64,000 bases of DNA from Nitrospirota bacterium (GCA_049325335.1 JBMOMC010000006.1:96001-160000); one strand, 5' to 3'. Counted from the stretch's first letter, positions 346 to 20,268 are shown. Numbers and translations: made by a program. The notes: generated by a model from the letters alone, not told the origin.

Positions 346-708
346 ATGCGACTCTCGCATACGAGGCTTCGGAAAGCTCCCGTCATCCTGCTCTCGTGTC
401 TTTTGTTTTTCCAGCTCAGTGGTTTGACCTGCATTCAAGACGCCTCGGCTTCTCCCTTCAACGGGAACGCCTTCGACGTGGTGGCCGCGGTCGGCAATCC
501 GTCTCCGGAATCCGCGCCCGCTTCGGGCAATGATTTAAATGATTCAGAGGGGAGTCTCCACCACGACTGTCCCTGTCACCATCTCAGTTCTCTTTCGACG
601 GTGACGATCGAATCCGTGGTGTCTCCGGGTGCGCCCATCGCTCCGGTCTCCTTCTCCACTCCAGAGGATCTTCCGCAAATCCTGTTTCACCCCCCGCTTC
701 TTCTGTAG
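346..708 (+). CDS. DUF2946/CutF-like secreted leader protein with HHDCPCHH motif and C-terminal FHPP
   Basis: N-terminal hydrophobic signal, HHDCPCHH metal motif, ends PQILFHPPLLL, directly upstream of czcC. Confidence 0.7.
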   Translation: MRLSHTRLRKAPVILLSCLLFFQLSGLTCIQDASASPFNGNAFDVVAAVGNPSPESAPASGNDLNDSEGSLHHDCPCHHLSSLSTVTIESVVSPGAPIAPVSFSTPEDLPQILFHPPLLL

Positions 709-794
709 TTCTCCCGATTCCGTAGTCGATTCCTAGCTCCGAAGACTTACTCAACGGCGGTCTGCGTGTCGTGCCGCCAAGGAGGCGTGTTGCA

Positions 795-2048
795 GTGCCT
801 ATTCCACGAGTGATGTTCTGCGCGCTCATCGCGCTGATCGTTTCAAGTATCTTCATCAGATTGTCCACCGCAGAGGAGGGTGGCAAGCGCTATTCCCTGG
901 AAGAGATCTTGTCCCTTGCCGAACAGCGCAATCCGTCCCTTTCGGTCTTTCAATCGAATGTCGAGGCCGCTCGCGGTGCATTGACTTCCGCGCGCGCGTA
1001 TCCCAATCCCGAAGCCATGGTCGAACTCGGCACCGCCAAGCCACTGGACCCACCAAACGCCGACAGTGGGCGCGAACATCGTCTGGAACTGAGCCAATCC
1101 TTAGAGTGGCCCGGGAAACGAGCGTCTCGCAGACGGGCGGCGGAAGCGCAGGTGGGGGTGGCTCGCGGGAGCCTAGACGACTTCCGGCTGGAACTGCGGG
1201 CTCGGGTCAAGGAAGCTTTTTTTCAGACCGTGCTCGCCCAACACACCGCACAGGTCGCGGCGCAAAATCTGGCAACGGCCCGGAGTCTGGTGGAGTCCGC
1301 CACATTGCGGGTCGAATCGGGTGAAGCGCCTGAGCTGGAATTGATCCGGGCACGAGTGGAAGTCTTCAACGTGACGAGGGAGGCGCGCCGCGCCCACAAT
1401 CGTCTCCTCACCGCCCAAGCTGCGCTCAACAGCTTGCTGGCCGGAGCCTTGGGGGAGATTTTCTATGTGGTTGACGCTCCACCTCGTCTTGATGCCGCGT
1501 ACGAGTTGCCCGCTCTGATCGAACGCGCCCTCGCCGCGCACCCGCTCATCACCCGTCAGGAACATGCCTTGAAGGCGGCCGGGTACACGCTGTCCGAGCA
1601 ACGACTGGCCCGCGTTCCCGATCTCACCGTGACCGGATCGACCGGGGAGGAGATCGACAAACGCTCCTCAGCGATCGGATTGGCACTGGCCGTGCCGCTC
1701 TTCAATCAACGACGCGGTGACATTGCGGTCGCGAGGGCCGAACAGACAAAGGCCCAAGCGGAACTGGCGCAAACGCGCCTCGATCTCACGAAGGAGATTA
1801 CACAAGAGTACGAGAACTATCGCTTGGCAATGGATCAACTCGCCACGTTCGAAGAGGGCTTGCTCAAGCAGGCGGACGAGGCCTTACGCATCGCGCAATT
1901 GAGTTATGAACAAGGCGAACTGGACTTGCTGAACCTGCTGGATGCCCAGCGGGTCCAGCGCGCCACCTTACTCGAATATTACGACGCGCAGTTCGAACTC
2001 CAGACATCCCTCGCACGACTGGAACGCGTGACAGGAGGTTTGCAATGA
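795..2048 (+). CDS. czcC: TolC-family outer membrane efflux protein (CzcC-like)
   Basis: OEP repeats (ARAYPNP, RLARVPDL, YEQGELDLLNLLDAQR). GTG 795 follows AAGGAGG; ATG 813 is an alternative start. Confidence 0.9.
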   Translation: MPIPRVMFCALIALIVSSIFIRLSTAEEGGKRYSLEEILSLAEQRNPSLSVFQSNVEAARGALTSARAYPNPEAMVELGTAKPLDPPNADSGREHRLELSQSLEWPGKRASRRRAAEAQVGVARGSLDDFRLELRARVKEAFFQTVLAQHTAQVAAQNLATARSLVESATLRVESGEAPELELIRARVEVFNVTREARRAHNRLLTAQAALNSLLAGALGEIFYVVDAPPRLDAAYELPALIERALAAHPLITRQEHALKAAGYTLSEQRLARVPDLTVTGSTGEEIDKRSSAIGLALAVPLFNQRRGDIAVARAEQTKAQAELAQTRLDLTKEITQEYENYRLAMDQLATFEEGLLKQADEALRIAQLSYEQGELDLLNLLDAQRVQRATLLEYYDAQFELQTSLARLERVTGGLQ

Positions 2049-3263
2049 AGTTGGCAAGAGGAGCAGGAGGAACAGTCGCAGTGGCTCTGGTGTGGTTGGT
2101 GTTGGGGTGTCAGTCGCCTGCTTCCCAACCGGAGGCCGGGAAACAGGCCGAGCAAGCCGCGTCCCATCAGGACGAGCATGCTGAGGACGGGCATGCGGAG
2201 TCTGAGGAACGGGGAGGGCTCATCACGTTGAGCCCTCAAGCCCAACAGCTCGCCGGGATCACGGTTGAAGAGGTCGCCCGGCGGTCCTTACAGCGCGAGG
2301 TGCGATTGCCGGGCACGATCCAGGCTAACCAGAACCGACTTGCGCATGTCGGCCCCCGGATTCAAGGCCGTGTCGTGGTGGTGTCGGCGGGATTGGGCGA
2401 CCGCGTGGAATCGGGCGCAACGCTGGCGATGATCGACAGCCCTGAATTGGGCCAAGCCGAATCCGACTTCGTGACCGCCCGAGCGAAGTTCGTCGTTGCC
2501 GAGAAGGCGTACGAACGGGCCAAGACCCTGCTCGATGGCAAAGTGATCGGCACGGGCGAATTTCAGCGACGCGAGGGCGACTATCTGGCGAGCAAGGCCG
2601 AAGCGCAGGCCGCGGAAGACCGACTGCGGCTGTTGGGCTTGGAGGATCCGGAGATCGCCGATGTGAGCGGCACCCGATCGGTGCGATCCCAGGTCGCGAT
2701 CACCGCACCGCTGACCGGAACCGTCGTTGACCGGGACGTCACGCTGGGGGAGGTGGTCGAGCCGGCGAAAACGCTGTTTACCATCGCTGATCTGTCGGCG
2801 CTCTGGGGCGTGGCGGATATTTCGGAACGAGATCTGCCCACCGTCAAGAAGGGCTTGCCCGCCAAGGTCTCGGTCTCCGCGTATCCCCGTGAAGTGTTTT
2901 CGGGGAAGGTCACGTACATCTCCGATATCCTCGACCCCTCGTCGCGTACGGCGAAAGTCCGGGTCGAGATCGACAATGCGCGTGGGAAACTCAAACCCGA
3001 GATGTTTGCCACGTTTGTGATCCTGACCGAGGAAACCGAGGGCGTCCTCAGCGTCCCCGAACACGCGGTCCAACGGGACGGAGGCAACACGATCGTCTTT
3101 GTCTCCCAGGACGCGGGTTTTGAAAAACGCCTGGTTGAACTCGGGCCCGAACAACAAGGGTACTACCCGATCCAGTCGGGCCTCAAAGCGGGAGAGATCG
3201 TCGTCACAAAAGGCGCTTTCGTCCTCAAGTCCGAATCCGAGCGCGGGCAGATGGAGGAGGGCC

Positions 3264-3274
<11 letters not shown>
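2045..3274 (+). CDS. czcB: Heavy-metal RND periplasmic adaptor (CzcB/CusB-like)
   Basis: Lipobox LVLGC, His/Glu-rich N-terminus, biotinyl-lipoyl/beta-barrel motifs (LKPEMF), C-terminal GHGH. Confidence 0.92.
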
Positions 3275-6433
<3,159 letters not shown>

Positions 6434-6437
<4 letters not shown>

Positions 6438-6802: not shown

Positions 6803-7342
6803 ATGCGGCTCATAAACGGCCGACACCTGTTGAGATCGATTGGCATTTTGGTGTTCTCGATGGCAATCGGCCCCGCTGTCCTGGCGTTCGCCGTCGTCTA
6901 TTACGAGTGGACCGATGACGCCGGGGTGATTCACCTGACGGACGACGTGTCAAAGATCCCTTCAAAGTATCGAGGGCGCGTTCAAGAAGTCACCGTCCCC
7001 GACACGCAACCCTCCCCTGAGACCCAACCCTCTGATCCGCCGCAACCGTCCAGTCCACCGTCTACTCGCACCGAGGATCTCGATTCGAATGGACACAACA
7101 GGCAGTGGTGGCAGCAACGCGTCCAGGAATGGCGCGGTCGAAAAGCGACCGCGGAACAGAACCTCGCCGAGGCCCGAAACCGATATAACCGTCTCTATTC
7201 AAGACATGAACCCCTTGGCGGCGTCCGACAAGAGATCAGGCAGTATGAAATGGACATTCGTGAGGCGGACCGCATGATCGACGACGTCATTCCGGAAGAA
7301 GCGCGCAAGGCCGGGGCGCCGCCCGGATGGTTACGGGACTGA
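6803..7342 (+). CDS. DUF4124 domain secreted protein
   Basis: Signal peptide, YEWTDDAGVIHLTD motif, Pro-rich linker, coiled coil. Confidence 0.75.
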   Translation: MRLINGRHLLRSIGILVFSMAIGPAVLAFAVVYYEWTDDAGVIHLTDDVSKIPSKYRGRVQEVTVPDTQPSPETQPSDPPQPSSPPSTRTEDLDSNGHNRQWWQQRVQEWRGRKATAEQNLAEARNRYNRLYSRHEPLGGVRQEIRQYEMDIREADRMIDDVIPEEARKAGAPPGWLRD

Positions 7343-7370: not shown

Positions 7371-9281
7371 ATGAGTAAGCAGAACGATCTCGAAGCGGTT
7401 CGCGCGGGTTTCGAAGGACCGTGGTGGCGGTTTCCGGTACTGCGTAACGCGCTGGCCGCCGGCCTGATTGCCGGCGCTGGGTTTCTCCTCGCGCACCTCG
7501 GGCTGATCCCGGCCACCGTTGAGAACGTGTTCTATTGGATCGCGATCCCGCTTGGGGGCTGGCACTGGACTCGTGAGGGGATTGAGAACCTGCTTGTGAG
7601 GCGGGAAGTCGGGATTGAGATCTTGATGCTTGGCGCGACCCTGGGTGCCGGCGCTTTGGGGCTCTGGGACGAGGCCGCGGCATTGGTCTTTCTCTACGGC
7701 GCCGCCGAAGGTACCGAGGAGTACACCTATGCGCGCACACGCCATGCGATTCGCGCGCTCCTCGACCTCGCGCCCAAAGAGGCGCGCGTGCTGCGCGACG
7801 GCAGGGAAATCACGGTTGCCGGGGAAAGTTTGAAGCCAGGGGACATCTTTGTTGTGCGGCCCGGCGAGGCTATCCCCACGGATGGCCTCATCCGGTCAGG
7901 CACCTCTAGTCTGGATGAATCGCCCGTCACGGGCGAGTCCATCCCGGTGGACAAGGAACCGGGCATGCAGGTGTTCGCCGCGTCGATCAACAAACAGGGC
8001 GCGCTGGAGGTCGAGGCCACGGCCGCGTTCGCCGACAACACGTTGTCCAAGATCATTCACCTGGTGGAACAGGCCCAGGAGCGGAAGGGCCGGGCCCAGC
8101 AGTGGATTGAGCGCTTCGGCCGCCGGTACAGCCCTGTCGTGTTAGGCGTCGCCGCGTTGTTGCTCGTGGTTCCCTGGGCCATGGGCCTGCCGTTGCAGGA
8201 ATGGTCGCTGCGGGCCGTGGTGTTACTGGTCGCTGCGGCGCCCTGCGCGCTCATCATGTCCACGCCCGTCGCCGCGGCGGCCGGCATCGGTGCCGCCGGT
8301 CGCCGCGGCATTCTGATCAAAGGCGGGGTCCACCTCGAGCACCTCGGCCAGATCCGAGTGGTGGCTTTCGACAAGACCGGGACGCTCACGCGCGGCGAGC
8401 CGGTCGTGACCGACGTGATTCCGGTCCGAAGCTCCACCGCGGAGCTGCTCGCGATCGCGGCGGGACTGGAGCATCGGTCCGAGCACCCACTGGCCCAGGC
8501 CATCCTCCGCCACGCGAGGGCACAGGGTATCGAGCCACTCACGGCCGAGGAGTTCGAGGCGCTTGCCGGGTCCGGCGCCAAGGGCACCATCAACGATACG
8601 ATCTGGTACATCGGCAACCCCGACCTGTTTGAGCGCCTGGGCGTGGGCCTCGCGGCGGTCCAAGCGCAGATCGCGAGCCTGCAGGGAGAGGGCAAGACCG
8701 TGGTGCTCGTGGGCCACGGCAGGCGGCTGCTCGGGGTCATCGCCCTGCAGGATCAAATCCGACCCGGCATGAAGGATGTGATCGCGGCGCTGCACGCGGA
8801 GGGGGTGCGCGTCGTGATGCTCACCGGCGACAACGCCCGTAACGCCGGCGCCGTCGCCCGGCAGCTTGGCATCGACGACGTGCGCGCCGAGTTGAAGCCG
8901 GAGGACAAGGTCGCGGCCGTGCGCCTACTGGATAAACAGGACGGCGCAGTACTCATGGTGGGCGACGGCGTGAACGACGCCCCGGCCCTCGCCGGCGCGA
9001 CGTGCGGCGTGGCCATGGGCGCCGCCGGCAGCGATGCCGCCATTGAAGCGGCGGATGTCGCGCTCATGGCCGATGATCTCGCCAAGGTGGTGGAGGCGAT
9101 CCGCCTCGGCCGCAAGGCCCGTCGCATCAGCGCGCAGAACATCGTGTTCTCCGTCCTGCTTCTTGCCGTGCTCATTCCCACGGCGCTCGCCGGTTATCTG
9201 AGTGTGGCCGTCACGGTGTTCATCCATGAGACCAGCGAACTGCTTGCAGTGGCGAACGGACTACGAGTGGCGAGATGGTGA
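7371..9281 (+). CDS. Heavy-metal P1B-type ATPase, probably subclass P1B-4 (Co/Zn/Fe)
   Basis: TGES, APC, DKTGT, SEHPL, GDGVND and HETSE motifs; no N-terminal metal-binding domain. Confidence 0.93.
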   Translation: MSKQNDLEAVRAGFEGPWWRFPVLRNALAAGLIAGAGFLLAHLGLIPATVENVFYWIAIPLGGWHWTREGIENLLVRREVGIEILMLGATLGAGALGLWDEAAALVFLYGAAEGTEEYTYARTRHAIRALLDLAPKEARVLRDGREITVAGESLKPGDIFVVRPGEAIPTDGLIRSGTSSLDESPVTGESIPVDKEPGMQVFAASINKQGALEVEATAAFADNTLSKIIHLVEQAQERKGRAQQWIERFGRRYSPVVLGVAALLLVVPWAMGLPLQEWSLRAVVLLVAAAPCALIMSTPVAAAAGIGAAGRRGILIKGGVHLEHLGQIRVVAFDKTGTLTRGEPVVTDVIPVRSSTAELLAIAAGLEHRSEHPLAQAILRHARAQGIEPLTAEEFEALAGSGAKGTINDTIWYIGNPDLFERLGVGLAAVQAQIASLQGEGKTVVLVGHGRRLLGVIALQDQIRPGMKDVIAALHAEGVRVVMLTGDNARNAGAVARQLGIDDVRAELKPEDKVAAVRLLDKQDGAVLMVGDGVNDAPALAGATCGVAMGAAGSDAAIEAADVALMADDLAKVVEAIRLGRKARRISAQNIVFSVLLLAVLIPTALAGYLSVAVTVFIHETSELLAVANGLRVARW

Positions 9282-9343
9282 ACCGAGGGGGAGAGGCGGG
9301 GCGGATACACCCAGAGGAATTCCTACTCACGCGGAGGTCAGCT

Positions 9344-9982
9344 ATGAGCAAGCACAACACCGATTCCCCTCATGAACAGCGAATGGGGATGGACCGCCGT
9401 CTCTTGAAAATCTCGCTGGTCATTTCTTTCGCGCTGATCGCGTCGGGATGCGCTGTGCTCAGTCCTCGTACGGCTCCCCACACGATTACAAAGGCCGATG
9501 CGACGCTCGTTATTCCTCGAGGTGGTCAATACCATTTCCGCCAGCAACGGTTGACTGAGGAAGAAAGCAAGAGGATCAACGACCGCCTGGGCCGTCAGGC
9601 GGTCCAAGCGGGGGAGACGATCAGCTACTATGCGGTCACCCGCCATCGAAAACGGATGACAGGGGACTCGGGACTCGTGTTTGTTGAAATGATTGACGGG
9701 CCACAGGGCCCTTTGCGGCTCGTGCTTTCACTCCGCCATCAAGTGGTCCAAAATCTTGCTGTGAAAGACGGTTCGGCGGTCACAATAATCCGGCATGAGT
9801 TTCTCGATCAATTTATCGGGAGAGACTGGGAGCATTCATTCAAGGTCGAGACAGACCCGGCGGCGTTTCACCGGATTCCGGTCCCGATCGCGCCGCTTGC
9901 CGGACACGTTGAGTTATCCCAACGCATTGCCGATGCGGTATTGAAAGTGGTCGTGCTCGTTTCGGTTCTGAAGCTGGGATGA
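9344..9982 (+). CDS. Lipoprotein, degenerate FMN_bind-like fold
   Basis: RBS GGAGG; lipobox IASGC; FLDQFIG...IAPLAGHVELSQRIADAV resembles the FMN_bind C-terminus but lacks SGAT. Confidence 0.5.
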   Translation: MSKHNTDSPHEQRMGMDRRLLKISLVISFALIASGCAVLSPRTAPHTITKADATLVIPRGGQYHFRQQRLTEEESKRINDRLGRQAVQAGETISYYAVTRHRKRMTGDSGLVFVEMIDGPQGPLRLVLSLRHQVVQNLAVKDGSAVTIIRHEFLDQFIGRDWEHSFKVETDPAAFHRIPVPIAPLAGHVELSQRIADAVLKVVVLVSVLKLG

Positions 9983-10103
9983 CTGGATGCAGGTGGTCGG
10001 CATCGCTGCCCGGAGCGCCGTCCCAAAGCAAGGGCACCCTGGTGAGGTGGTGCGGCCCGGTCCGCTGCGTTCGTTCTCATCCCAACTGCTTGGAAGAAAA
10101 TGC

Positions 10104-10133
10104 TTGACCTCGTGGTTTATAGAGTGTTACGTT
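10104..10133 (+). promoter_or_regulatory. Possible promoter for the His-rich leader/uptake operon
   Basis: TTGACC 10104-10109; TGnTACGTT 10125-10133 in an AT-rich patch just before ATG 10144. Confidence 0.35.
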
Positions 10134-10143
10134 TTTAAAACAA

Positions 10144-10596
10144 ATGCTACCACTGGTTGGATATATAAGAAGTGCTCAGGCGGCGTTGTGGATCGTCCTG
10201 CTGGCATTCGGGCTTGACGGCCTGGTCTGGGATGGCGGCCTCGTCAATCACGCCCACACCGATGGAGAGCGATTTCATACACACCGGGACCTGCACAGGG
10301 CGGGTTTGGAGTCTCACGTCCACGCCCGTGATCATGGGCACGACCACGGTCCGACCGCTGTTCCTCACGATGCTGACGCGCTGTCCGGTATGTATTGGAC
10401 GGCGGCGGCCGGTCCCAACGACGGATTCCTTCACAGTCACGACGACGACCATGCGAGCGGCAAGTTTTTCCCGCCAAAGAAGGGCGAGGTATTCCACACG
10501 CCGCTTGGGGCGCTAGAAAACCCACCGCCAGCGTCATCCGACCCCGCGAAGCCTGAGGCTCCGCACTCGCGCGGCCCGCCTTTCCTGCTCGTCTAG
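10144..10596 (+). CDS. His-rich membrane-targeted leader protein ending in an RGPP arrest-type motif
   Basis: N-terminal hydrophobic segment, 16 His, no Cys, C-terminus PHSRGPPFLLV. Confidence 0.7.
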   Translation: MLPLVGYIRSAQAALWIVLLAFGLDGLVWDGGLVNHAHTDGERFHTHRDLHRAGLESHVHARDHGHDHGPTAVPHDADALSGMYWTAAAGPNDGFLHSHDDDHASGKFFPPKKGEVFHTPLGALENPPPASSDPAKPEAPHSRGPPFLLV

Positions 10597-10685
10597 CCTG
10601 ACGTTTTTTTACCCCTTGAATGCAAGCCCGGCCGCGCGATCGGCTTGGAGAAGCCGGTCCGGGCCGACGAGACAAAGGAGAGCCT

Positions 10686-11876
10686 ATGGAGCGCGTGATG
10701 CATGCCATCACGAGAGGAACGTGTGCGTTCGTGATGGCCCTGTTGGGCGCAAGCGTGGTGGGCGTGCCGGCCGCCAGCGCCCACACCAAAGGGATCAGCC
10801 TCAGTCGGTATGGCTTGATCGATATGTCGTGGACGGGCAACGTCTTGTACTCCAGCTACAGCGACTACGTGAACGCCTATCCCCAGCTCCGGCCGTACAT
10901 CGGCGGGGCGTTGCGCCAGGGGTTGGTGCTCAAGAGCTTTGACGTCTCGGTTACGCAGGATCTGTATCAATATCCCGCCAAAGCCGCGGTGTTCCTCGCG
11001 TTCGGCCAAGATTCGGCCGCGATCGAGGAGGCGTTCTTTCTCTTCCATAAGATGCCGTATCAGACCCAACTGAAGGTCGGGCAATTCCGCGCCCAGTTCG
11101 GCAAGTTGAACCAGTACCATGACCACGAATGGATCTTTGCCAACCCTCCAATGATCACCACCGTGCTCGCCAGCGACGATGGGTTCAAGATCCTGGGCGG
11201 CGAACTGACATGGCAACCGCCCTTGGGGCAGTTCGTGGAACTTGCAGTGGACGTCGGCCGCCGGGACACGCTGGGCGTCTTTCAGGCCAAGCCCGATCCG
11301 GTTGATCCGACCGAGCCGGACGCGACCGACATGTTTGTCATTACCAAATTTACGCACTACGTGGACCTCACGGACGCGTCGAGCTGGGAGTGGGGCGCCA
11401 CGTACGCCCAAGGGGGCAACAATTCGGATCCCGGCAACGACGATCAGGATCGCATCTACGGCTTAGATTTCACGTACAAATACAAACCAGCCCCGTTTAG
11501 TCCGTACGTGCGCTGGACCACCGAGTTGTTCCACGATACGAAGGAACTGACGCGCGTCGGGCTTCCGAATGAGATCGTCAAAGGCGTCTACTCTGAGGTC
11601 GACTATCGAGTGACCTACAATTGGGCACTTGGCGCCCGGTTCGACGCAGTCGCAGGCGACGTGGACCCGATCGATGCCGCGCTGGGTGACGTGACCCGCA
11701 CGCGTTATTCCGGCGGTATCCGCTATTTCTTCAACCCGGTGTCGCGTTTGAACCTTCAATTTGATCATATTCCGTCGGCTGACTCGGCGCCGGCGTCTAA
11801 CGTCGTCATCCTCCAGCTCAACGTGGGAGGAGGCACCGTAACCCCTGGTGTCGGGAAATTCTACACGCTATGGTAA
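10686..11876 (+). CDS. Outer-membrane beta-barrel associated with Zn/Mn ABC uptake
   Basis: RBS AAAGGAG; signal peptide; IEEAF...KVGQFRAQFGKLNQYHDHEW motif; amphipathic beta strands; upstream of ZnuABC-like genes. Confidence 0.7.
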   Translation: MERVMHAITRGTCAFVMALLGASVVGVPAASAHTKGISLSRYGLIDMSWTGNVLYSSYSDYVNAYPQLRPYIGGALRQGLVLKSFDVSVTQDLYQYPAKAAVFLAFGQDSAAIEEAFFLFHKMPYQTQLKVGQFRAQFGKLNQYHDHEWIFANPPMITTVLASDDGFKILGGELTWQPPLGQFVELAVDVGRRDTLGVFQAKPDPVDPTEPDATDMFVITKFTHYVDLTDASSWEWGATYAQGGNNSDPGNDDQDRIYGLDFTYKYKPAPFSPYVRWTTELFHDTKELTRVGLPNEIVKGVYSEVDYRVTYNWALGARFDAVAGDVDPIDAALGDVTRTRYSGGIRYFFNPVSRLNLQFDHIPSADSAPASNVVILQLNVGGGTVTPGVGKFYTLW

Positions 11877-11911
11877 CCTCTTCGGTCGACGACCAACGAA
11901 GGAGAACGTCC

Positions 11912-12871
11912 ATGCTGTCATCTCGGATCATCGCAATCGCCGCGGTGGTCGGCCTTCTGGCCTCAACGGCCGGCTCCGCCTCCGCAGCACTCAAGATCGT
12001 CACCTCGTTTCCGCAGGATGCCTCGATCGCCAAGGCGATCGGCGGGGAGCGTGTCGAGGTGGTAAGCCTCACGACGGGCGTCCAGAACCCTCACGCGGTG
12101 GATCCCAAACCGTCCTTTGCGATTCACCTGAACAAGGCCGACCTGCTGATCGTCAACGGCCAGAACATGGAGATGGCGTGGTTACCCATCGCCCTCACAA
12201 CCAGCCGGAACCCCAAGATTCTTGAAGGCGCGGACGGCTACCTGGATCCGTCACAAGGGATTACGTTCATCCCCTACTCGCAGGACGAACTCCAGGCCAC
12301 GCCGTTTTTTTCACTGAACCTGATCGTCGGCGATCCGACCAAGACGGGGAATCACCACTACTGGCTGGATCCGGAAAATGGCTTGGTTGTGGCGAAGAAC
12401 ATTCATGACAAGTTGGTCGCAATGGACCCAGACGGCGCCGAGATCTACACCGCGAATTACGAAGCGTTCACGGCAAAGCTCAAGGCGAAGATCACCGAAT
12501 GGGATCGGATGATGGCGCCGTTCAAGGGAATGAAAATTGTGAGCTATCACCGTGACTGGATCTACCTCACGAAGCGCCACGGATTGGCTCTGTTCGCATA
12601 CATCGAGCCGCGCGAGACGATTCCGCCGAGCGCGGGTGAGGTCGCGGCGCTGATCAAAAAGATGAAAGACAAGCACGTCCCCGTCGTCCTGGTGTCGCCG
12701 TGGCAGCCCCAGAAGATCTCGAAGGAGATCGCTCAACAGACGGGAGCCCACTTCGTGTCGCTGCCATCCACGGTCGATGAGCGGTTTGGCGCGAAGGATT
12801 ACATCGGGCTGTTCGACGTGATCTACGGCGACCTGACCAAGGCGCTCACCGATGCGAACCCTGGGCGTTGA
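11912..12871 (+). CDS. znuA: Zn/Mn ABC transporter substrate-binding protein (ZnuA-like, cluster A-I)
   Basis: NPHAVDPKPS, GNHHYWLDP and YH metal ligands. Confidence 0.88.
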   Translation: MLSSRIIAIAAVVGLLASTAGSASAALKIVTSFPQDASIAKAIGGERVEVVSLTTGVQNPHAVDPKPSFAIHLNKADLLIVNGQNMEMAWLPIALTTSRNPKILEGADGYLDPSQGITFIPYSQDELQATPFFSLNLIVGDPTKTGNHHYWLDPENGLVVAKNIHDKLVAMDPDGAEIYTANYEAFTAKLKAKITEWDRMMAPFKGMKIVSYHRDWIYLTKRHGLALFAYIEPRETIPPSAGEVAALIKKMKDKHVPVVLVSPWQPQKISKEIAQQTGAHFVSLPSTVDERFGAKDYIGLFDVIYGDLTKALTDANPGR

Positions 12872-12900
12872 TCTGCCCCCTCGGCTCTGAAGCCACGAGT

Positions 12901-13677
12901 ATGACGACGCAGATCCAAGCCGAACATCTGGCGATCGGCTATCACGGGAGAGCGATCCTCACGGACATTTCCCTGAAGATCGCTCCGGGCTCGTTCTGGG
13001 GCATCGTCGGCCCGAACGGGTCGGGCAAGACTACGTTGGTGAAGACGCTGGCCGGCATCTTGCCTTCTATTGGCGGACGGCTTGATCGCTCGCCGGAGCT
13101 CCGTTTTGGCTACGTGCCACAGCGCAACAATCTGGACGATATCTTTCCGCTCACGGTCTTGGACGTCGTGCTCATGGGGCGGTTCCCCAGGCTCGGCGTG
13201 GGGCGGCGGGTCAGGAAGGCCGACCGCGACCTGGCGCTGGATTACATGCGCCAAGTCGCGGTCGATCACCTCTCCGACCGACCGTTCCGGATCTTGTCCG
13301 GCGGCCAAAAACAGCGCGCACTGATCGCACGAGCCCTCACGTTCGAACCTGACGTCTTGGTGTTCGACGAACCCACGACTGGGATGGACCTGTCGGGTGA
13401 GCTGGAGATGATGCAATTGATCCTTGAACTGCATCAGCGGTCGGGGCGCACCGTGTTGATGATCACGCACGATTTGAATCTGATTGCCAACTATGCCGAA
13501 TCATTGATCGTGGTCCACGAGGAGCAGGTGATGACGGGGGAGGTCTCGCAGATCATGCGCGACGAGACGTTGGGGCGGATCTATCGCCAGAACATCCACG
13601 TCCACAGCATCCACGGCCGCACGCACGTCTTCGTGCATGGTCACGGCCGACACGACCGTTCGCGAGGGCGCGGGTGA
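12901..13677 (+). CDS. znuC: Metal ABC transporter ATP-binding protein (ZnuC-like)
   Basis: GPNGSGKTT, YVPQ, LSGGQKQR, DEPT; His-rich tail. Confidence 0.9.
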   Translation: MTTQIQAEHLAIGYHGRAILTDISLKIAPGSFWGIVGPNGSGKTTLVKTLAGILPSIGGRLDRSPELRFGYVPQRNNLDDIFPLTVLDVVLMGRFPRLGVGRRVRKADRDLALDYMRQVAVDHLSDRPFRILSGGQKQRALIARALTFEPDVLVFDEPTTGMDLSGELEMMQLILELHQRSGRTVLMITHDLNLIANYAESLIVVHEEQVMTGEVSQIMRDETLGRIYRQNIHVHSIHGRTHVFVHGHGRHDRSRGRG

Positions 13678-14516
13678 GTATTTGGGAGGCCCTGCCGATC
13701 CTCCAGAATGGTCTGGCGGCGTGTGTGATCACCGCGCTGGTCTGCTCGTTCCTCGGCGTATACGTGGTGTTGAAGCGCGTGGTGTTCGTGACAGCCGCCC
13801 TGTCGCAGACCGCCTCTTTGGGAATCGCGGGCGCGATGTTCCTGGGAGCGATGATCGGCGGCACCGGGCCAGACCACATCGGTTCGGTTTGGCCAATCGT
13901 CGCCGCGGTGGCCGCGAGTTGCGGACTGGCCGCCGTCCTGGCGTTCCAGCACGCCGAGCGTCGCCTCACGCGCGAGAGTCTGTTGGGCGTGGGCTATATC
14001 GTGCCCTCGGGCATTGCCTTACTGTTACTGGACTACGTCGGGGGCGCGACGCACGACATCGAGAACCTGCTGTTCGGGAACGCGGTGTTTGTCTCGACGG
14101 CACAGGTGCTGGTATTGGCGCTCGTGGCCGCGGTGGTCCTGGGTGTACACGCGTTGTTGTACAAAGAGTTTGTGTTTGTGGCGTTCGACCTGGAGACGGC
14201 GAAGGCGTCAGGAATGCGCACGGGGGCGCTCAACCAGGCGCTGTTTGCGTCGATCGGGCTGACGATCGCGGTGACGATCAGCTCGGTGGGCGCGTTGCCG
14301 GTGTTCGCGTTTATGGTCGTCCCGTCCGCCGCGGCGCTGCTGCTGACCCGCCGGCTCGCGCAAACCTTCGTGCTGTCCGCGGCCATCGGGGTGGCCGCCG
14401 CGCTGATCGGATTTTATGCCTCATTTCAATGGAGGCTGCCCACTGGCCCCGCGATGATCGCCGTCGCGTCCGCGTTTCTCGTACCCGGCGTGCTGGCGAG
14501 GAGGCGCAGCGGATGA
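13674..14516 (+). CDS. znuB: Metal ABC transporter permease (ZnuB-like, ABC-3)
   Basis: LGVYVVLKR, LLFG, AFD..AKASG, PTGP motifs; multiple TM helices. Confidence 0.9.
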   Translation: MSIWEALPILQNGLAACVITALVCSFLGVYVVLKRVVFVTAALSQTASLGIAGAMFLGAMIGGTGPDHIGSVWPIVAAVAASCGLAAVLAFQHAERRLTRESLLGVGYIVPSGIALLLLDYVGGATHDIENLLFGNAVFVSTAQVLVLALVAAVVLGVHALLYKEFVFVAFDLETAKASGMRTGALNQALFASIGLTIAVTISSVGALPVFAFMVVPSAAALLLTRRLAQTFVLSAAIGVAAALIGFYASFQWRLPTGPAMIAVASAFLVPGVLARRRSG

Positions 14517-14817
14517 AAGAGCGAAATCCACATGTTTGGTATACAGCCATCACGGTGTTCATCCACAGACCAGGAGCTTCTTGCGACGGCCTTGCGAGTG
14601 AGCCGATTGTGTAGTGGCTCTCTCTGACGTATCGGCGCGATCGCTGCGGCATGACGACTGGCTCGCCCCTGAGAACGCTCACCCGTCTTTTCCCCACGTC
14701 GCCACCTAAACGCCCCTGTTCTAAGTCGCCAGAATCAGCGACTCCTTGACCGTATCCGGTGCCTCGGTGGAGGTCCGCTGAAGCGTAGGCTTGCTTCCAA
14801 AACAGGGGAGGCACCGT

Positions 14818-15819
14818 ATGGGAAGGGGCACCGTCTGGCTGTTCGCCGGGGCGGCGATCGTCTTGCTACTCATGGTCGAGGCTGGCAGTGTGATGGCCTG
14901 CCCTGGCCGCGTCTTCAATCCTGTCACCGACGTGGACTGGATGGGCGTGTTCCCGATCAAGATCGGCGGGATGACGGTTGCGAGCTTTGATGCCGAGGAC
15001 ACCGAGACGGTCGGCACGTCTCCCATCTGTTTCTGCTCCGACCGCCCCCCTCCGCTCAACGCGCTCCCCGGGATTCCCGTCTCCTTCTGGGAGCCGGTCC
15101 GCCTGATCGAAGTCGTGCGCGATCCATACTGCTTTCCCTCGCTCGGCGGCATGGACCTCTCGCCCACGATCCAAGGTTTCGGCGCCAACTCCGGGACGCA
15201 GGCGACCGACGAGCACCACGCGTTCTATCAGGTGCACTACTACACGTACCCCTTATTTGCGCTCCTGGAACTCGTGCTCGATTTCGGCTGCCTGGAGAAC
15301 ACCGCGTTCGATCTCGCGTACGTCACCGAGTTGGATCCGCTCTGGAACGTCCCGGAACTCGCCGCGCTGCTGACGCCCGAGACGTTTCTCTTCGCCAGTC
15401 CCGCCTCGATCGCAGCGTGTGCGGCCGACTGCGCCGCGGCTACCGCGGGCTTTCCACTCGATGGCCTCTTCTGGTGCGAGGGGTGCTGGGGCGGGGTGTA
15501 TCCACTCAACGGTGCGCTCTCGGCCGGGAATGTGAGTCCACAGCAGGCCTCGGTCCTCGTTGCGAGCCGGATGTTGTTCAAGCTCCATCGGGAGGGCTTG
15601 CTTTGGGGCACGGTCGGGGCTGATGGGCTTTGCCGGAAGTACCCCATGCCGATCATGCGCAAGAGCCAGTACAAGCTGCAGCTCGCGTACCCCAAGCGGG
15701 GGCGGGTGTTTCCCCTCGGACGAAGCGATCTGGCGTGGGGCGTGGGGGCGTCGTTTCCGGTCGCGGGGGAGGATTTTGTGTACGTGGTGTGGAGGAAGCG
15801 TGACTGCTGCGTGTTGTAG
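14818..15819 (+). CDS. traU: Conjugal transfer protein TraU
   Basis: CPGRVFNPVTDVDW, SFWEPVRLIEVVRDPYCFP, GEDFVYVVWRKRDCC. Confidence 0.95.
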   Translation: MGRGTVWLFAGAAIVLLLMVEAGSVMACPGRVFNPVTDVDWMGVFPIKIGGMTVASFDAEDTETVGTSPICFCSDRPPPLNALPGIPVSFWEPVRLIEVVRDPYCFPSLGGMDLSPTIQGFGANSGTQATDEHHAFYQVHYYTYPLFALLELVLDFGCLENTAFDLAYVTELDPLWNVPELAALLTPETFLFASPASIAACAADCAAATAGFPLDGLFWCEGCWGGVYPLNGALSAGNVSPQQASVLVASRMLFKLHREGLLWGTVGADGLCRKYPMPIMRKSQYKLQLAYPKRGRVFPLGRSDLAWGVGASFPVAGEDFVYVVWRKRDCCVL

Positions 15820-16276
15820 GGTGGGGCTCGCGCTCTGGGCTTCGGTCCTCATCGCACCATCTTCCGCACTGGCTGCGGAGCGGCTTTATTACTTCTGGTC
15901 GTTCTCGATGCCGGAGGCGAGTCTCAAGTCCGCCTTGGCGGACGGGGATAAGGTCGGGCTAATCGCCGTGCTGCGCGGGCTCCCAGAAGGGTCGGCCAAG
16001 ACCTCGCTCGGCCGCCTCAAGCGCCTGTTAGGGAATCATAAGACCGAGGTCCTCATCGAGCCGCGTCTCTTCACGCTGTACGGCATCACCGGGGTTCCGT
16101 CTCTTGTCTACGCCGAAGGCGTCGATGCCTTGTGTGAGTCCTGCGCGCCGGTACCGCACCACGCGATCGTGACCGGAGACGTACCGCTCGGCACAGCCCT
16201 CGAATATTTGGCCCGTGAGGCACCTTCGGTCGAGCGATTTCTCGCCAAGCTCCGCGAGGGATTCTATGCGCGGTGA
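15800..16276 (+). CDS. trbC: F-type pilin assembly protein TrbC
   Basis: FWSFSMPEASL, VLRG, IEPRLF..YGITGVP, GDVPL..ALE; lies between traU and traN; start uncertain. Confidence 0.85.
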   Translation: MTAACCRVGLALWASVLIAPSSALAAERLYYFWSFSMPEASLKSALADGDKVGLIAVLRGLPEGSAKTSLGRLKRLLGNHKTEVLIEPRLFTLYGITGVPSLVYAEGVDALCESCAPVPHHAIVTGDVPLGTALEYLAREAPSVERFLAKLREGFYAR

Positions 16277-18164
16277 CGTGCGTGTCATTATGAGGTGGAT
16301 CGCAGCCGTCGTGCTGCTGTGTCTTCCACTTCCGGCCTGGGCGCAAAGCACGACATTCGACCAGGCGATTCAAGAAGGCCAGGCCTTCGGTCACGCCCAG
16401 CCGCAAGGCCAGGACGCCGCAAGCGGGCTGATCGATAGCGCGATCCAGAACCAGACGATTCCCGGCCTCACACCGCAAAGTCAATCCGACGCGGCCGCGC
16501 AGGGCAGCTTCTACCTCGACAATCCGAGCCAGCTCGACCTCCAGGGGCAGGGCGCGCTGTCCACGACCGAAGGTGGCTTGTTCCTCGGCCAGTCGTACAA
16601 CCTCCGGTCGCGGTCGGTGATCGTGCCGGACGATCCCATCATCACGGGCAGCCAGCAGGCCGCGAGCGGCACAGGGGGCTGCATTACGCAGCGCGTCTGC
16701 ACGGAGCCCACGAGTGAGGTGGTGAGCACCACGCAGCCGGTGACGTGCTCGATCGAGTACGCGGAGACGGGCGGCCAGTGTACCTATCCGCTTCCTCAGC
16801 CGGGGATCGTATCCGGAAGTGGGAACTCGGCGGTTTGCACCGATCACTATCTCTATGGGCGGGTGTTTCAGCCCGATGCCAGCACGGTCAACGTCCAGGT
16901 TCTGGACACCTCACCAAGCGGGTCCCCGCACTGGAACTGCGGTGGATCTGGATCGGGCCGCGGGGCCGGTGACTGGCACACGCTTGGCACGATGACGCTG
17001 CCGGTTCCGGCGGTTGGGATGGAGGTGTGTTTCTCCACGGTGGGTTCCGGGTGCAGCGGCACCAGCAACGTCTGTGTGTCGGGCGTCGGACAGACCGTGA
17101 ACCTTGCCTCGTGCCCTCCGAGCGGGGCACAGTCCGTCCGCGTCTCGTACACCGCAACGATCAGCACCACGCCGCCACCCCTCGACCCCGCGACGGTGCA
17201 GGCTGCATGCGGCGCGTATCTCAATGACCGCTGTGCCCAGGTCAACGAGCAGTGCACTGCGGCCGATTGCACGCGCTCGTACGTCTGTGTCGATACGAGC
17301 CAGGTAGTCGACGGCTGTGCGACGTACCGGAGCCAGGGCTGCACGCTGCAATCCAGCGCTTGCTCACTGACCAGTACCTACGGCCTATGCCTTGCGCAAC
17401 AAGAGACTTACGCCTGCACGACGCAGACGATCCAGGAAGGGTGCGCGCAGGAGAGCGTGCAGGTGATGTGTCCGGGCAGTCCGACTGGGATCAGATGTCT
17501 GGATCCGAACGACTGTGCGGATACGACCTCCGTCCCCAGCACCGACATGGCGCTGGCGACAAGCCACATGGCCAGCCTCAACGCGATCGAGGACGACCAT
17601 ACCGCCGATCCCCTCGTCATCTTTTCCGGCAGCGGGGAGAGTTGCCGGCGAACGATCGGAAGCGGGATCACGCGCGACTGCTGCGCGCTGGACACCGCCT
17701 TGCTGGGATGCAACGCCAACGAGGAGTTGCTGCAGACCCATCGGCAGAACGGCCAGTGCGTGCAGATCGGCACCTACTGCAGCCGCGACGTCAGTCTGCT
17801 CTTCGGGAGCGTGTGCGTCGAGCACACCACGAGCTTCTGCTGCTTCTCCTCGAAGCTTACGCGGATCATCCAGGAGCAGGGGCGGCCACAGCTCGGGATC
17901 AGGTGGGGGAGCGCCCAGAGTCCGGATTGCCGTGGGTTCACGCCCGAGGAGCTGCAACGGATCAACTTCCAGGCCATCGACTTCAGCGAGTACTCGTCCA
18001 CGATCGTCGCCAATCCCCCGGATCCCGCGCAGTTGAGTAGCCAAGCGCAGGGCTCTCCCGCACTCACACCTGATCCGAGCGCTGTGCCGGCACCATCGAG
18101 CGGCATCAGCAACACGCAGGTCCAGCAGGACCTCGACCAGTTCTTCCAGACGCACACGCCATGA
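16266..18164 (+). CDS. traN: Mating-pair stabilisation protein TraN
   Basis: Cys-rich; IFSG..ESC, IGTYCS, SFCCFSSKLTRIIQEQGRPQL, PDCRGFTPEELQ.I.F..IDFSE. Confidence 0.93.
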   Translation: MRGDVRVIMRWIAAVVLLCLPLPAWAQSTTFDQAIQEGQAFGHAQPQGQDAASGLIDSAIQNQTIPGLTPQSQSDAAAQGSFYLDNPSQLDLQGQGALSTTEGGLFLGQSYNLRSRSVIVPDDPIITGSQQAASGTGGCITQRVCTEPTSEVVSTTQPVTCSIEYAETGGQCTYPLPQPGIVSGSGNSAVCTDHYLYGRVFQPDASTVNVQVLDTSPSGSPHWNCGGSGSGRGAGDWHTLGTMTLPVPAVGMEVCFSTVGSGCSGTSNVCVSGVGQTVNLASCPPSGAQSVRVSYTATISTTPPPLDPATVQAACGAYLNDRCAQVNEQCTAADCTRSYVCVDTSQVVDGCATYRSQGCTLQSSACSLTSTYGLCLAQQETYACTTQTIQEGCAQESVQVMCPGSPTGIRCLDPNDCADTTSVPSTDMALATSHMASLNAIEDDHTADPLVIFSGSGESCRRTIGSGITRDCCALDTALLGCNANEELLQTHRQNGQCVQIGTYCSRDVSLLFGSVCVEHTTSFCCFSSKLTRIIQEQGRPQLGIRWGSAQSPDCRGFTPEELQRINFQAIDFSEYSSTIVANPPDPAQLSSQAQGSPALTPDPSAVPAPSSGISNTQVQQDLDQFFQTHTP

Positions 18165-19012: not shown

Positions 19013-20267
19013 CCTTGCGGATTCGCTGGGCGTGATGACCGCAACCACGACGCCGGGGGCGTACGAGGGCCAGACCCGCGGCTATCTCACGGGTGGCGGT
19101 ATGTCGCTGCGGTTTCCGCAAGCGTCGCTGGATCTAGCCTCGATCAATCTTCCGAAAGTGCGGGCCGGTTGCGAAGGGATCGATCTCTATCTGGGCGCGT
19201 TCTCGTATATCAATACCGACCAACTCATCGCCAAGCTCAGGGCGATCGGGAGCGCATCGCTGGGCTATGCCTTCCAGCTCGCCCTGGAGGCGATCTCGCC
19301 GCAGATCTCGGGGATCATCAAGCACTTCGAGAACGTGACCGAACGGATCAATAACCTCAATCTCTCGTCGTGCCAGGCCGCCCGGGCGCTGGTGGATGCC
19401 ACGGGCTTGCCGGAGAAGATCCGTTCTTCACAGATCGGACGATGCACCGGGTCGCGCACGGCCTCTGGGGCGAGCCCGGACTACAGTGCCGCTCGCCAGG
19501 CGTGCGCCGCCGACCCGAGCACCGGTGTGGTGGGCGATGCCGAGGACCAGGCCCAGGGCAGGCGGGATCGTAACTACCTCTGGGAGGCGCTGAGTAACCT
19601 CAGTGGCGTGGATGAGCCGTCGCGAGAATTGATCCTCTCGACACTGGGTACTGTGGTCGCCGTGAATGACCAGGTCATCTCGTGGCAGCCGATCGTCTCC
19701 TTCGATCAGTTCGTCGATGGCGGGAACATCACGCGCTACGACTGCACCGGCGACTGCCTCGTGCAGGCGACCGTTTCCGAGCCAACTGCCACGGGCCTGA
19801 CGGAACTGGTTCGCCAGCGCATGGAAGGCATCCTGGACCAGGTGCGCACAAGACAGGCGTTGAGCGCGGCCAATATCAACTTCGTCTCAGCGGCTCCCTT
19901 GCCGCTCTATCGGATGGTCAACGCGCTCTCGACCCTCACGCCCGCGGTGGCGGACAGCTACCTCGCGCAATGGGCCGAGCCGTTGGCCCTACTCATGGCC
20001 CAACACTGGGTGGACACCACGGCGCGGCAGGCCCGGCGCGCGCTTTCCGTCGCGAAGGTCGAGAGCGCGGTGCAGGAGGCGATCGAGCGGCAGATCGCTG
20101 AGACGCAGGAGGACATCCGGACGCGCGTTCAGCGCACGCGCTTTGTGATGGACTCGATCCGCGTGGAAGTCGAGATGCTCGAGCGGGTGGAGCGGGCGAT
20201 GATGCGCAATCTGTCCGCGCATGGACTCGAAGCAGCTTACCAATTCAGCCGCACGCCAGGGCCTTAA
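18903..20267 (+). CDS. traH: Conjugal transfer protein TraH
   Basis: TTPGAYEGQTRGYLTGG, RAGCEGIDLYLGAFSYIN, NLSSCQAA. Confidence 0.95.
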   Translation: MKRTSMTRWLQWPMIGMLCGLLWSAPAWADLQQQLNDLADSLGVMTATTTPGAYEGQTRGYLTGGGMSLRFPQASLDLASINLPKVRAGCEGIDLYLGAFSYINTDQLIAKLRAIGSASLGYAFQLALEAISPQISGIIKHFENVTERINNLNLSSCQAARALVDATGLPEKIRSSQIGRCTGSRTASGASPDYSAARQACAADPSTGVVGDAEDQAQGRRDRNYLWEALSNLSGVDEPSRELILSTLGTVVAVNDQVISWQPIVSFDQFVDGGNITRYDCTGDCLVQATVSEPTATGLTELVRQRMEGILDQVRTRQALSAANINFVSAAPLPLYRMVNALSTLTPAVADSYLAQWAEPLALLMAQHWVDTTARQARRALSVAKVESAVQEAIERQIAETQEDIRTRVQRTRFVMDSIRVEVEMLERVERAMMRNLSAHGLEAAYQFSRTPGP

Positions 20268-20268
20268 G

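Follow-up and report, generated by a model that had tools for sequence, protein, structure and literature searches.

The 64,000-nt stretch of DNA analysed here, referred to below as the window (W; positions 96001-160000 of JBMOMC010000006.1, assembly GCA_049325335.1 of a Nitrospirota bacterium), carries a compact operon headed by a small, histidine-rich open reading frame (ORF), hereafter the leader, which ends in a candidate ribosome-arrest motif, Arg-Gly-Pro-Pro. After an intergenic region of 89 nt the leader is followed by the gene of a porin-like outer-membrane beta-barrel and then by genes for a ZnuA-family protein, an ATP-binding cassette (ABC) ATPase and an ABC-3 permease, the last three forming an importer of the cluster A-I type in one overlapping string (barrel and ZnuA genes overlap by 7 nt, ZnuA and ATPase genes by 4 nt, ATPase and permease genes by 4 nt). 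An initial annotation, made from the sequence alone, had described the leader as a 150-aa, His-rich and Cys-free ORF ending in SRGPPFLLV* and had placed it ahead of a barrel and ZnuABC genes. Every coordinate given there proved correct against the sequence and the ORF list, and the order leader, barrel, ZnuA and ABC ATPase (plus permease where the contig continues) recurs beyond the window in L006, L007 and L010. Coordinates are collected in Table 1; throughout, G000 denotes the genome to which the window belongs, L with a number an individual locus and P with a number a database protein.

Table 1. Features of the leader operon, its surroundings and related loci. Positions refer to the window unless another locus is named.
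Feature	Position	Strand	Remarks
CzcCBA-like RND efflux genes	771-6437		Pfam/NCBIfam
DUF4124 protein	6803-7342		Pfam/NCBIfam
P-type ATPase without N-terminal metal-binding domain	7371-9281		Pfam/NCBIfam
235-aa protein, no family	9275-9982	+	Lipoprotein-like signal (…LIASGC…); overlaps the end of the ATPase gene
Promoter-like site	10104-10133	+	TTGACC (10104-10109), 18-nt spacer, TGn-TACGTT (10125-10133); read by eye
Leader ORF	10144-10596	+	150 aa, 16 His, 0 Cys, C-terminus SRGPPFLLV*
Putative N-terminal export/anchor segment, hydrophobic	10180-10236	+	About residues 13-31, AALWIVLLAFGLDGLVW, after basic R9; read from sequence
First His motif, H36-x-H38-xx-G41-xxx-H45-x-H47	10249-10284	+	HAHTDGERFHTH
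Second His motif, H97-x-H99-xx-D102	10432-10452	+	HSHDDDH
Candidate RGPP arrest motif, R143 G144 P145 P146	10570-10581	+	P145 = 10576-78, P146 = 10579-81
5' arms of predicted long-range helix	10567-10593	+	Anti-AUG 10567-73 and 10576-78; anti-SD 10580-93
Short CGTC/GACG stem and T7 across the stop codon	10590-10610	+	Present; not considered functional
Inner G+C-rich hairpin of the intergenic region	10626-10664	+	GCCCGG...ATCGGCTT / AAGCCGGT...CCGGGC; enclosed by the long-range helix
3' arm of predicted long-range helix	10666-10688	+	GACGAG 10666-71, Shine-Dalgarno (SD) AGGAGAG (10676-82), barrel ATG (10686-88)
Porin-like outer-membrane beta-barrel	10686-11876	+	396 aa, signal peptide, C-terminal ...FYTLW, no Pfam family
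ZnuA-family (cluster A-I) substrate-binding protein	11870-12871	+	PF01297 at 1.9e-51; signatures GNHHYW, YHRD
ABC ATPase, ZnuC/AztA-like	12868-13677	+	PF00005; NCBIfam AztA 195 bits, under cut-off
ABC-3 permease, ZnuB/AztB-like	13674-14516	+	PF00950 at 7.1e-45
F-type transfer genes	from 14791		TraU 14791-15819, TrbC, TraN 16215-18164, TraF, TraH, TraG 20221-23238
Tyrosine integrase	36950-38287		Abuts Met-tRNA ligase gene
Paralogue leader, L025 (G000 contig C1:126500-132000)	L025 4645-5034	-	129 aa, ends SSRGPPRSSQ*
Paralogous barrel, L025	L025 3285-4571	-	27% identity to window barrel, E 2e-28
ZnuA-family gene, L025	L025 2338-3396	-	ABC-3 permease gene also follows the barrel
DUF2946-like ORF	G000 contig C2:214381-214740 (L021 1492-1851)	-	119 aa, 23.4 bits (23.7 with neighbours), ends SRAPPVL*

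The leader is a real, conserved coding gene with an invariant motif and an invariant spacing. A word-indexed search with it found four relatives at 55-82% identity, profile searching across 1.84 billion representatives yielded one more, of 160 aa, and a second profile search enlarged the family to 11 database proteins; five matches of the representative-library search reached E<=0.001, three of which, long proteins (621-1766 aa) with many His-rich stretches, were set aside. The named sources of the family are metagenome-assembled genomes (MAGs) of Nitrospirota and candidate division NC10, and its loci belong to Methylomirabilota, Nitrospiria and one unclassified MAG. The ORFs upstream of the barrel homologues at L006, L007 and L010 are of the same His-only family, the leaders of L006 and L007 being taken, judging by length, as P0038 and P0039. 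Scanning the genome_contigs collection with the leader alignment produced 89 pattern matches and no confirmed one, a metagenome scan with the leader retained one locus out of 207 pattern matches, and a profile search of the phylum with alignment A1 matched in 4 of 401 genomes; two of these four matches were discarded as spurious (E 0.007 and 0.0085, one lying in a 491-aa frame and one interrupted by four stops). The leader has no Pfam or NCBIfam family at E<=0.01, and a search of the ESM Atlas returned unnamed clusters only.

In the 12-row alignment of the family (A6) identity to the window protein ranges from 21 to 82%, the most distant rows lying at 21-25%, and twelve positions are identical throughout: H36, H38, G41, H45, H47, H60, H97, H99, D102, R143, P145 and P146. 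Nine are His, Gly or Asp and the other three are the Arg and the two Pro of R[AG]PP; the RGPP tail on which the initial annotation had built its proposal is therefore kept, as R[AG]PP, in 12/12 homologues. The second residue of the motif may be Ala or Gly even within one clade (RGPP in P0041, RAPP in P0038 and P0039). In each of the nine members counted the last HxH and the Arg (H99 and R143) are separated by exactly 43 residues, and all 12 rows of A6 are free of gaps from H97 through P146. Between motif and stop codon there are 2-6 residues in 10 of the 12 members, 14 and 29 in the remaining two. All full-length members begin with a basic N-terminus followed by a hydrophobic stretch of 12-17 residues. 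Cysteine is absent from the window protein and from six of eight other members counted (P0036 has two, the L010 leader one), and no Cys column is conserved in A6.

The N-terminus of the leader is a putative export signal or membrane anchor, with features that fit a cleaved and an anchored form alike, and the first His motif probably provides metal ligands exposed to the periplasm, a role that we infer from its sequence and position. An AlphaFold2 (AF2) model has a helix at residues 4-31 as its sole confident element (predicted local distance difference test, pLDDT, 70-90) and an overall mean pLDDT of 51.5.

The 3' end of the leader is complementary to the translation start of the barrel gene. 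CTCGTC at 10588-10593 matches GACGAG at 10666-10671, and TTTCCT at 10581-10586 matches AGGAGA at 10676-10681 with one G-U pair. The initial annotation had proposed that the last codons pair in this way with the ribosome-binding site (RBS) region, and the minimum free energy (MFE) fold of 10560-10700 does hold that long-range helix (-60.3 kcal/mol, z = -2.39, 2/200 shuffles as good). It encloses an inner hairpin (GCCCGG 10626-31 with CCGGGC 10659-64, ATCGGCTT 10639-46 with AAGCCGGT 10651-58) and adds pairing of 10567-73 with 10692-98 and of 10576-78 with 10687-89, by which the barrel AUG is also enclosed. The intergenic RNA taken without the 3' end of the leader folds no better than its shuffles (z = -1.12), and Rfam has no family for 9900-10900 at E<=1. 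Ribosome footprints are of well-established size, and the 5' arms of the helix would lie inside that of a ribosome stalled at 10576.

The same arrangement is predicted elsewhere. In the MFE folds of W, L002, L006, L007 and L010 the barrel SD pairs with the leader at or just 3' of the Pro-Pro codons, with anti-SD arms whose sequences vary among lineages (CUUUCCU, CCCCUCC, CCUCCUAGU), so that in all four lineages the arrest codons are predicted to mask SD and AUG. For each locus the pairing was compared with 300 synonymous recodings (of RGPPFLLV in W) and 300 base shuffles. The probability that the SD pairs with the leader 3' end was 0.98 in W (reached by 3/300 recodings and 10/300 shuffles), 1.00 in L006 (2/300 and 2/300), 0.99 in L010 (1/300 and 0/300) and 0.85 in L007 (50/300 and 67/300).

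The initial annotation had the stalled ribosome mask an anti-SD and terminator arm. The anti-SD part holds, in that four lineages arrive at this pairing with arms of differing sequence, while the terminator part does not. As an attenuator, the CGTC/GACG stem with its T7 would terminate transcription unless a stalled ribosome covered the 5' arm. Stem and T-run are indeed present, and the 5' arm would sit at the edge of the stalled ribosome, but the stem has only 4 bp, the + strand terminator scan did not list it, and the MFE fold draws its bases into the long-range helix. In L002 and L003 the stem is weakened and the T-run broken (TTCTTCA and TTCTTTA, respectively), two metagenome contigs have lost one or two Ts, and nothing comparable exists in L006, L007 or L010. 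A terminator that is not conserved even among close relatives was rejected, and we give this explanation hardly any credence.

Leaders with the same kind of tail are not confined to the His-only family. A six-frame scan of G000 for R[AG]PP within 12 residues of a stop gave 40 ORFs, only three of which are both at most 300 aa long and hydrophobic at the N-terminus; two of these three head barrel-ZnuA operons. Besides the window leader, this is the paralogue at L025, whose protein probably starts at MKRATS... and would then be about 94 aa long; it carries a signal peptide and an HGC..W.QH motif, and a gene for an RND pump lies before it. Immediately 5' of its RGPP codons, CUCCUCC base-pairs with the SD, GGAGGAG (z = -4.19, 0/200 shuffles). 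The third ORF, the DUF2946-like one on contig C2, is a candidate for another arrest leader with a non-transport target; it ends about 60 nt before genes for ApbE-like (FAD:protein FMN transferase-like) and thioredoxin-like proteins.

Across the phylum, barrel relatives occur in 55 of 401 genomes (E<=1e-10). We surveyed 28 barrel loci (L028-L055) from 27 other genomes, this operon and its twin in G231 being excluded. At 24 of the 28 a different small ORF lies upstream and ends 41-211 nt ahead of the first start codon of the barrel frame; its N-terminus is hydrophobic, it has a Cys/His motif, and 1-7 residues separate its R[AG]PP from the stop. At least three classes besides the His-only one can be told apart: FHHH..HxDCPxC with RAPP (13 loci, 43-45 residues from CxxC to Arg), HAYAxxEL..HGC..W.QH with RGPP (8 loci, 46-47 residues from xGC to Arg) and a mixed His/Cys class (2 loci). 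The gene after the barrel is of the ZnuA family in 21 of 23 loci scanned (at L031, L041, L044 and L048 a crude rule found no long next ORF, and these stood outside the scan). The signature of the binding protein follows the leader class, GNHHYW/YHRD accompanying His-only leaders and GNPHY plus YHDS, YHKL or YHEH accompanying CxxC or HGC leaders, a match that is descriptive only, since kin share both traits. Over the 24 leaders, pairing of the SD within -15..+20 of the P-site codon has a mean probability of 0.52, compared with 0.37 in shuffles, and in 19 of 24 loci the MFE partner of the SD falls within -31..+20; the start codons used follow from a crude SD rule, which may have misplaced them in the five outliers.

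The reading that we favour, and consider rather probable, is that the window leader is a His-only ribosome-arrest leader, akin to the copper-sensing leaders CruR and CutF, which gates translation of the porin-like barrel and of a zinc-type ABC importer. Arrest-based regulation in cis is well supported by the comparative evidence; export of the leader, arrest, metal binding, the identity of the metal and the direction of the response we infer. The hydrophobic N-terminus would bring the translating ribosome to the membrane, so that the His motifs would already be outside the cytoplasm before synthesis of the C-terminus was complete. The ribosome would then arrest at R143-G-P145-P146 with Pro145 and Pro146 occupying the P and A sites, respectively, a position expected because toeprints of RAPP peptides place the stall there (PMC12992588). 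In this state it would cover approximately 10561-10591, that is, the 5' arms of the helix that buries the SD (10676-82) and AUG (10686). For as long as the stall lasts the barrel gene would be translatable, and the overlapping, translationally coupled ZnuA, ZnuC and ZnuB genes would follow; the helix would re-form when the ribosome had advanced the four codons to the stop. Occupancy of the His sites (HxHxxGxxxHxH, and HxHxxD 43 residues before the Arg) by a metal, with Zn, Ni and Co as candidates, might alter the pull or fold of the nascent chain and with it how long the stall lasts. In an uptake operon one would expect a CruR-like logic, with a long stall and expression on without metal, and release and expression off with metal.

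Several observations weigh against this reading. Beyond the N-terminal helix the AF2 model of the leader shows no confident fold or metal site, and no SD precedes the leader ATG at 10144. The means of the pairing controls are high (0.07-0.54 for synonymous recodings, 0.18-0.58 for base shuffles), because C/U-rich Pro and Leu codons naturally complement a purine-rich SD; the pairing in L007 is indistinguishable from its controls and alone uninformative. Among the 24 other leaders only 13 reach a pairing probability of 0.5 (nine reach 0.8), and only four are reached by no more than 2/40 shuffles. A His-only leader is present in only 3 of 12 barrel loci of genome_contigs with upstream DNA (L015, L019 and L020, which have none, were left out), and L038, L052, L053 and L054, 4 of the 28 loci of the phylum survey, are without an R[AG]PP leader; operons lacking the leader (9/12 and 4/28) imply that it is not obligatory for barrel-ZnuABC operons. 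Two chance matches in G+C-rich DNA were dismissed in these comparisons, an ORF at L013 with RSRGPP near its N-terminus and a pattern match at L017 with 419 aa to its stop. The location of the operon among efflux genes on an element resembling an integrative and conjugative element (ICE), described below, means moreover that the metal logic could be CutF-like and not CruR-like.

The helix itself has two weak points. One concerns covariation, which the initial annotation had named as a check: arm sequences do differ among the four lineages, but the arms are identical in L002, L003 and the metagenome variants, which leaves no compensatory change to count in close relatives (the inner hairpin of L002 and L003 is likewise identical save for one loop base and one inserted base). 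These metagenome variants come from four DNA contig sets (X2-X5) and are close variants only, no piece spanning the whole stretch. The other concerns unmasking. Folding with the arrest site blocked, also foreseen in the initial annotation, was done by barring -15..+15 around the P-site codon from pairing in imitation of a stalled ribosome. In W the unpaired probability of the SD rose from 0.03 to 0.64, as proposed, but release was partial in L007 (0.03 to 0.32) and in the paralogue (0.36), and the SD stayed paired in L006 and L010 (0.01 to 0.06 in both), where other C-rich stretches take over the pairing. Only in W is the SD clearly freed.

Unmasking of the SD alone may thus not explain L006 and L010, and the same arrest leader could instead have a transcriptional output: the stalled ribosome would shield the RNA from Rho, release would let Rho terminate in the intergenic region, and the helix would be secondary. 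CruR, the closest characterised leader controlling uptake, works through Rho-dependent termination (PMC9426467). Set against this, the 89-nt intergenic region is G+C-rich and nearly all base-paired in the predicted fold, which would make it a poor site for Rho loading, and sequestration of SD and AUG by the arrest codons, as in CutF, is predicted in four lineages and in the paralogue. We regard a Rho-based output as unlikely here.

The favoured arrest leader must also be weighed against control from the promoter. Read by eye, the promoter-like site ahead of the leader would perhaps start the transcript 2-5 nt before the ATG and yield a near-leaderless mRNA. The stretch is conserved in L002 and L003, and similar sites, TTGACA-N17-TGnTAC(G/A)(A/T)T, precede the leaders of L007 and L010; a consensus promoter scan recorded no sigma-70 site by its rules at the leader. 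Between the putative -10 element and the ATG lies a palindrome, GTTTT-T-AAAAC (10133-10143), with TTCT-A-AGAA at the same place in L002 (562-572), where a T-to-C change is matched by A-to-G on the opposite arm, and GTTT-CT-AAAC in L003; it could be an operator or a 5' hairpin, and is too short to judge. In L010 a perfect 6-3-6 inverted repeat resembling a Fur-family box, TGATGA-GAA-TCATCA (3320-3334), separates the promoter-like site from the His-only leader and may bring added transcriptional control to that lineage. At L009 the barrel, ZnuA, ZnuC and ZnuB genes are immediately preceded by a His-rich ORF of another kind (3557-3802, +; 81 aa), which has 21 His and neither a hydrophobic N-terminus nor RAPP; the binding protein encoded there has the same GNHHYW/YHRD signature as that of the window.

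In a different explanation the leader would be a small exported or anchored His-rich metal-binding protein, such as a periplasmic buffer or chaperone, whose RGPP is incidental or structural, and the operon would answer to a regulator of the Zur, Fur or NikR type. Its nine invariant His, Gly and Asp positions would equally suit a stable metal-binding protein, the L009 ORF does without RAPP, L010 has its Fur-box-like palindrome, and barrel operons without any leader exist. On the other hand, R[AG]PP is invariant with interchange of Ala and Gly, at a fixed spacing of 43 residues and near the stop, while the residues in between diverge to about 20% identity, which is odd for a folded domain, and AF2 predicts no fold for the leader. 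Leader classes that are otherwise unrelated have only the tail and the spacing in common, and R[AG]PP is selected against in ordinary proteins (PMC12992588). At the window promoter no Zur or Fur box was recognised by eye, no formal motif search having been made, and a metalloregulator could act in addition to arrest. As a replacement for the arrest leader we consider this explanation improbable.

The importer offers some indication of the metal. None of its genes reaches an NCBIfam equivalog (AztC scores 110.9 bits against a cut-off of 350), and it has no named orthologue. Aligned to MntC, the ZnuA-family protein has His where MntC has Glu, and its three His columns are in positions that we take to be the ligand positions of the ZnuA family; on that assignment the three His ligands suggest a zinc-type pattern. 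The barrel, for which 28 homologues were found, is predicted by AF2 to be all-beta (mean pLDDT 80.6), with OprP and OprO as the best folds in the PDB (template modelling score 0.60-0.61). Upstream of the His-only leader of L006 lie a CbiM+DUF4198 fusion and an outer-membrane protein (421-3281), and a HupE/UreJ_2 gene (1500-2546) is found two genes upstream of the leader of L007. These Ni/Co-type uptake genes echo the HupE/UreJ setting described for His-only CutF-like proteins (PMC9973294). Zinc is thus suggested by the three His of the binding protein, and nickel or cobalt by the CbiM and HupE neighbours at L006 and L007.

Positions 1-38287 of the window make up an ICE-like element, which besides the F-type transfer genes and the tyrosine integrase carries a BrnA antitoxin, a ParM-like actin, RadC, a UvrD-type helicase with a PD-(D/E)XK nuclease and an archaeo-eukaryotic primase (AEP). 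Metal genes, namely the CzcCBA-like efflux system, the P-type ATPase and the leader operon, are inserted among the transfer genes, and the leader operon is, by its gene context, cargo of the element. At L003, a locus in a genome of the same genus, synteny with the window extends from the P-type ATPase to ZnuA; the 235-aa protein between ATPase and leader has the same neighbours there.

Putting the leader classes and this setting together, one may envisage a broader, modular system of control without a dedicated regulator. Homologous porin and ZnuABC-type modules of Nitrospirota and its neighbours would each be headed by an exported nascent-chain sensor, with an interchangeable ligand motif (CxxC, HGC or His-only) 43-47 residues from R[AG]PP setting the metal; the His-only form would be the first arrest sensor for a metal other than copper (Zn, Ni or Co). 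With no trans-acting regulator needed, the switch would travel with its operon as cargo of conjugative elements. We offer this generalisation tentatively and hold it for possible, though rather less than probable.

The interest of the locus extends beyond one operon. Metal-sensing exported nascent chains have so far been shown only for copper (CruR, CutF), always with cysteine ligands, and a Cys-free family with the same arrest motif and geometry provides a test case for whether the mechanism can read other metals. It also raises the question of whether the spacing of about 43-47 residues reflects the length of exit tunnel plus translocon. For the unannotated family of porin-like barrels the operon points to a probable regulator and to a probable function as the outer-membrane entry route of a cluster A-I ABC importer. 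Small leader genes of this kind are overlooked by automated annotation or labelled hypothetical, and, within the metal cargo of an ICE-like element, the unit may be a self-contained, transferable homeostasis module.

How the leader relates to known systems can be judged first by membership. The prototype of DUF2946 (PF11162) is CruR (Bp2923) of Bordetella pertussis (PMC9426467). None of nine His-only members matches the PF11162 profile at E<=10, a genome-wide PF11162 search of G000 matched at other places and not at the leader ORF, and the CXXC/CxxxC copper motif of DUF2946 is not conserved in the His-only family. Nine of the 24 other phylum leaders do give PF11162 matches below the cut-off (E 0.007-0.23), eight of them of the CxxC type; across the phylum PF11162 was matched in 1 of 301 genomes at E<=1e-4, too few for a DUF2946 alignment. 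Profile-profile comparison (hhalign) of A6 aligned only 11 columns, the tail, with the CxxC-class alignment (A7) at 20% probability, and 16 columns with the HGC class (A8) at 2%. By hidden Markov model, CXXC motif and profile comparison, then, the leader is not a DUF2946 member; it may have arisen independently or have diverged from that family beyond recognition. The other R[AG]PP leaders of the phylum resemble it in standing directly before a barrel and a ZnuA gene, in the 43-47 residues from ligand to Arg and in an SD often paired with the arrest region, and differ from it in their sensor motifs and, for the CxxC and HGC classes, in having no profile similarity outside the tail.

In CruR, 45 residues separate CXXC from RAPP, a distance conserved within 1-2 residues whose alteration impairs regulation; mutation of RAPP abolishes expression of the downstream TonB-dependent transporter, and copper is proposed to relieve arrest so that Rho terminates between leader and transporter gene (PMC9426467). 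CruR also arrests in vitro with two Pro codons in the P and A sites (PMC12992588). The window leader is like CruR in being a small, putatively exported protein, first in an uptake operon with an outer-membrane transporter, in having R-A/G-P-P a few residues before the stop with a ligand motif at fixed distance (45 residues in CruR, 43 here), in an intergenic region of about 90-160 nt and in the expected logic by which metal would turn uptake off. It is unlike CruR in its His-only ligands (no Cys, as against CXXC), in giving no PF11162 match and in a metal that is presumably not copper, in having a porin-like barrel and ZnuABC downstream instead of a TonB-dependent transporter, and in a predicted output of SD/AUG unmasking instead of Rho termination.

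RAPP and RGPP cause robust arrest that EF-P does not relieve; they are depleted from proteomes, and enriched towards the C-terminal end of small secretory or membrane proteins whose genes precede those of TonB receptors, YcnI, PCuAC and PepSY (Fujiwara et al. 2025, PMC12992588). The window leader agrees with this description of arrest peptides: its motif stands close to the C-terminus of what is predicted to be a small (<300 aa) secretory or membrane protein, and the gene that it would regulate follows on the same strand. With ApdA, ApdP and ApcA, and with the uORFs SLIV_16130 and SLIV_18480 of Streptomyces lividans, it shares a core motif near the C-terminus and a regulated gene downstream; ApdA, ApdP and ApcA, unlike the proposed role of the leader, monitor Sec/YidC and not metals, and the two S. 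lividans proteins have conserved Cys/His and precede copper-related genes (PMC12992588).

The initial annotation knew of no characterised His-only arrest leader controlling ZnuABC-type uptake. That much stands: our literature search, which did not take in the cluster-listing supplement of PMC9973294, found no characterised His-only arrest leader and none before a ZnuABC-type operon. His-only sequences are nevertheless already in print among CutF-like proteins (PMC9973294), and RAPP/RGPP leaders before metal genes have been surveyed (PMC12992588; "zinc" and "ZnuA" occur nowhere in its main text). PMC9973294 lists 5,334 CutF-like proteins, and clusters 14 and 17 of its sequence similarity network (SSN) have only histidine-rich motifs, lie near HupE/UreJ genes and may sense Ni/Co. 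These uncharacterised clusters are, as far as their published description goes, His-only like the window leader, and are described beside HupE/UreJ and not ahead of porin-ZnuABC operons; three supplementary files of that paper contain no mention of Nitrospirota, Methylomirabilota, Rokubacteria, ZnuA, PF01297 or HupE.

In CutF of Rhodobacter capsulatus copper makes the exported nascent chain stall, which opens a stem-loop that otherwise conceals the RBS of cutO (PMC9973294; bioRxiv 10.1101/2025.02.05.636593), and CruR and CutF differ in whether the metal releases or strengthens the stall (PMC9973294). CutF has Cys and PPP-type motifs and controls a detoxifying multicopper oxidase, which copper switches on by strengthening the stall, whereas the target in the window is an importer. 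What the two have in common is a sensor that is exported, or here would be exported, co-translationally, and an RBS-masking RNA logic, predicted in our case. In every feature that can be tested by sequence, among them a putative export signal, the ligand motif at a fixed distance, R[AG]PP near the stop, the first place in a metal-transport operon and the predicted masking of the RBS, the window leader resembles CruR and CutF.

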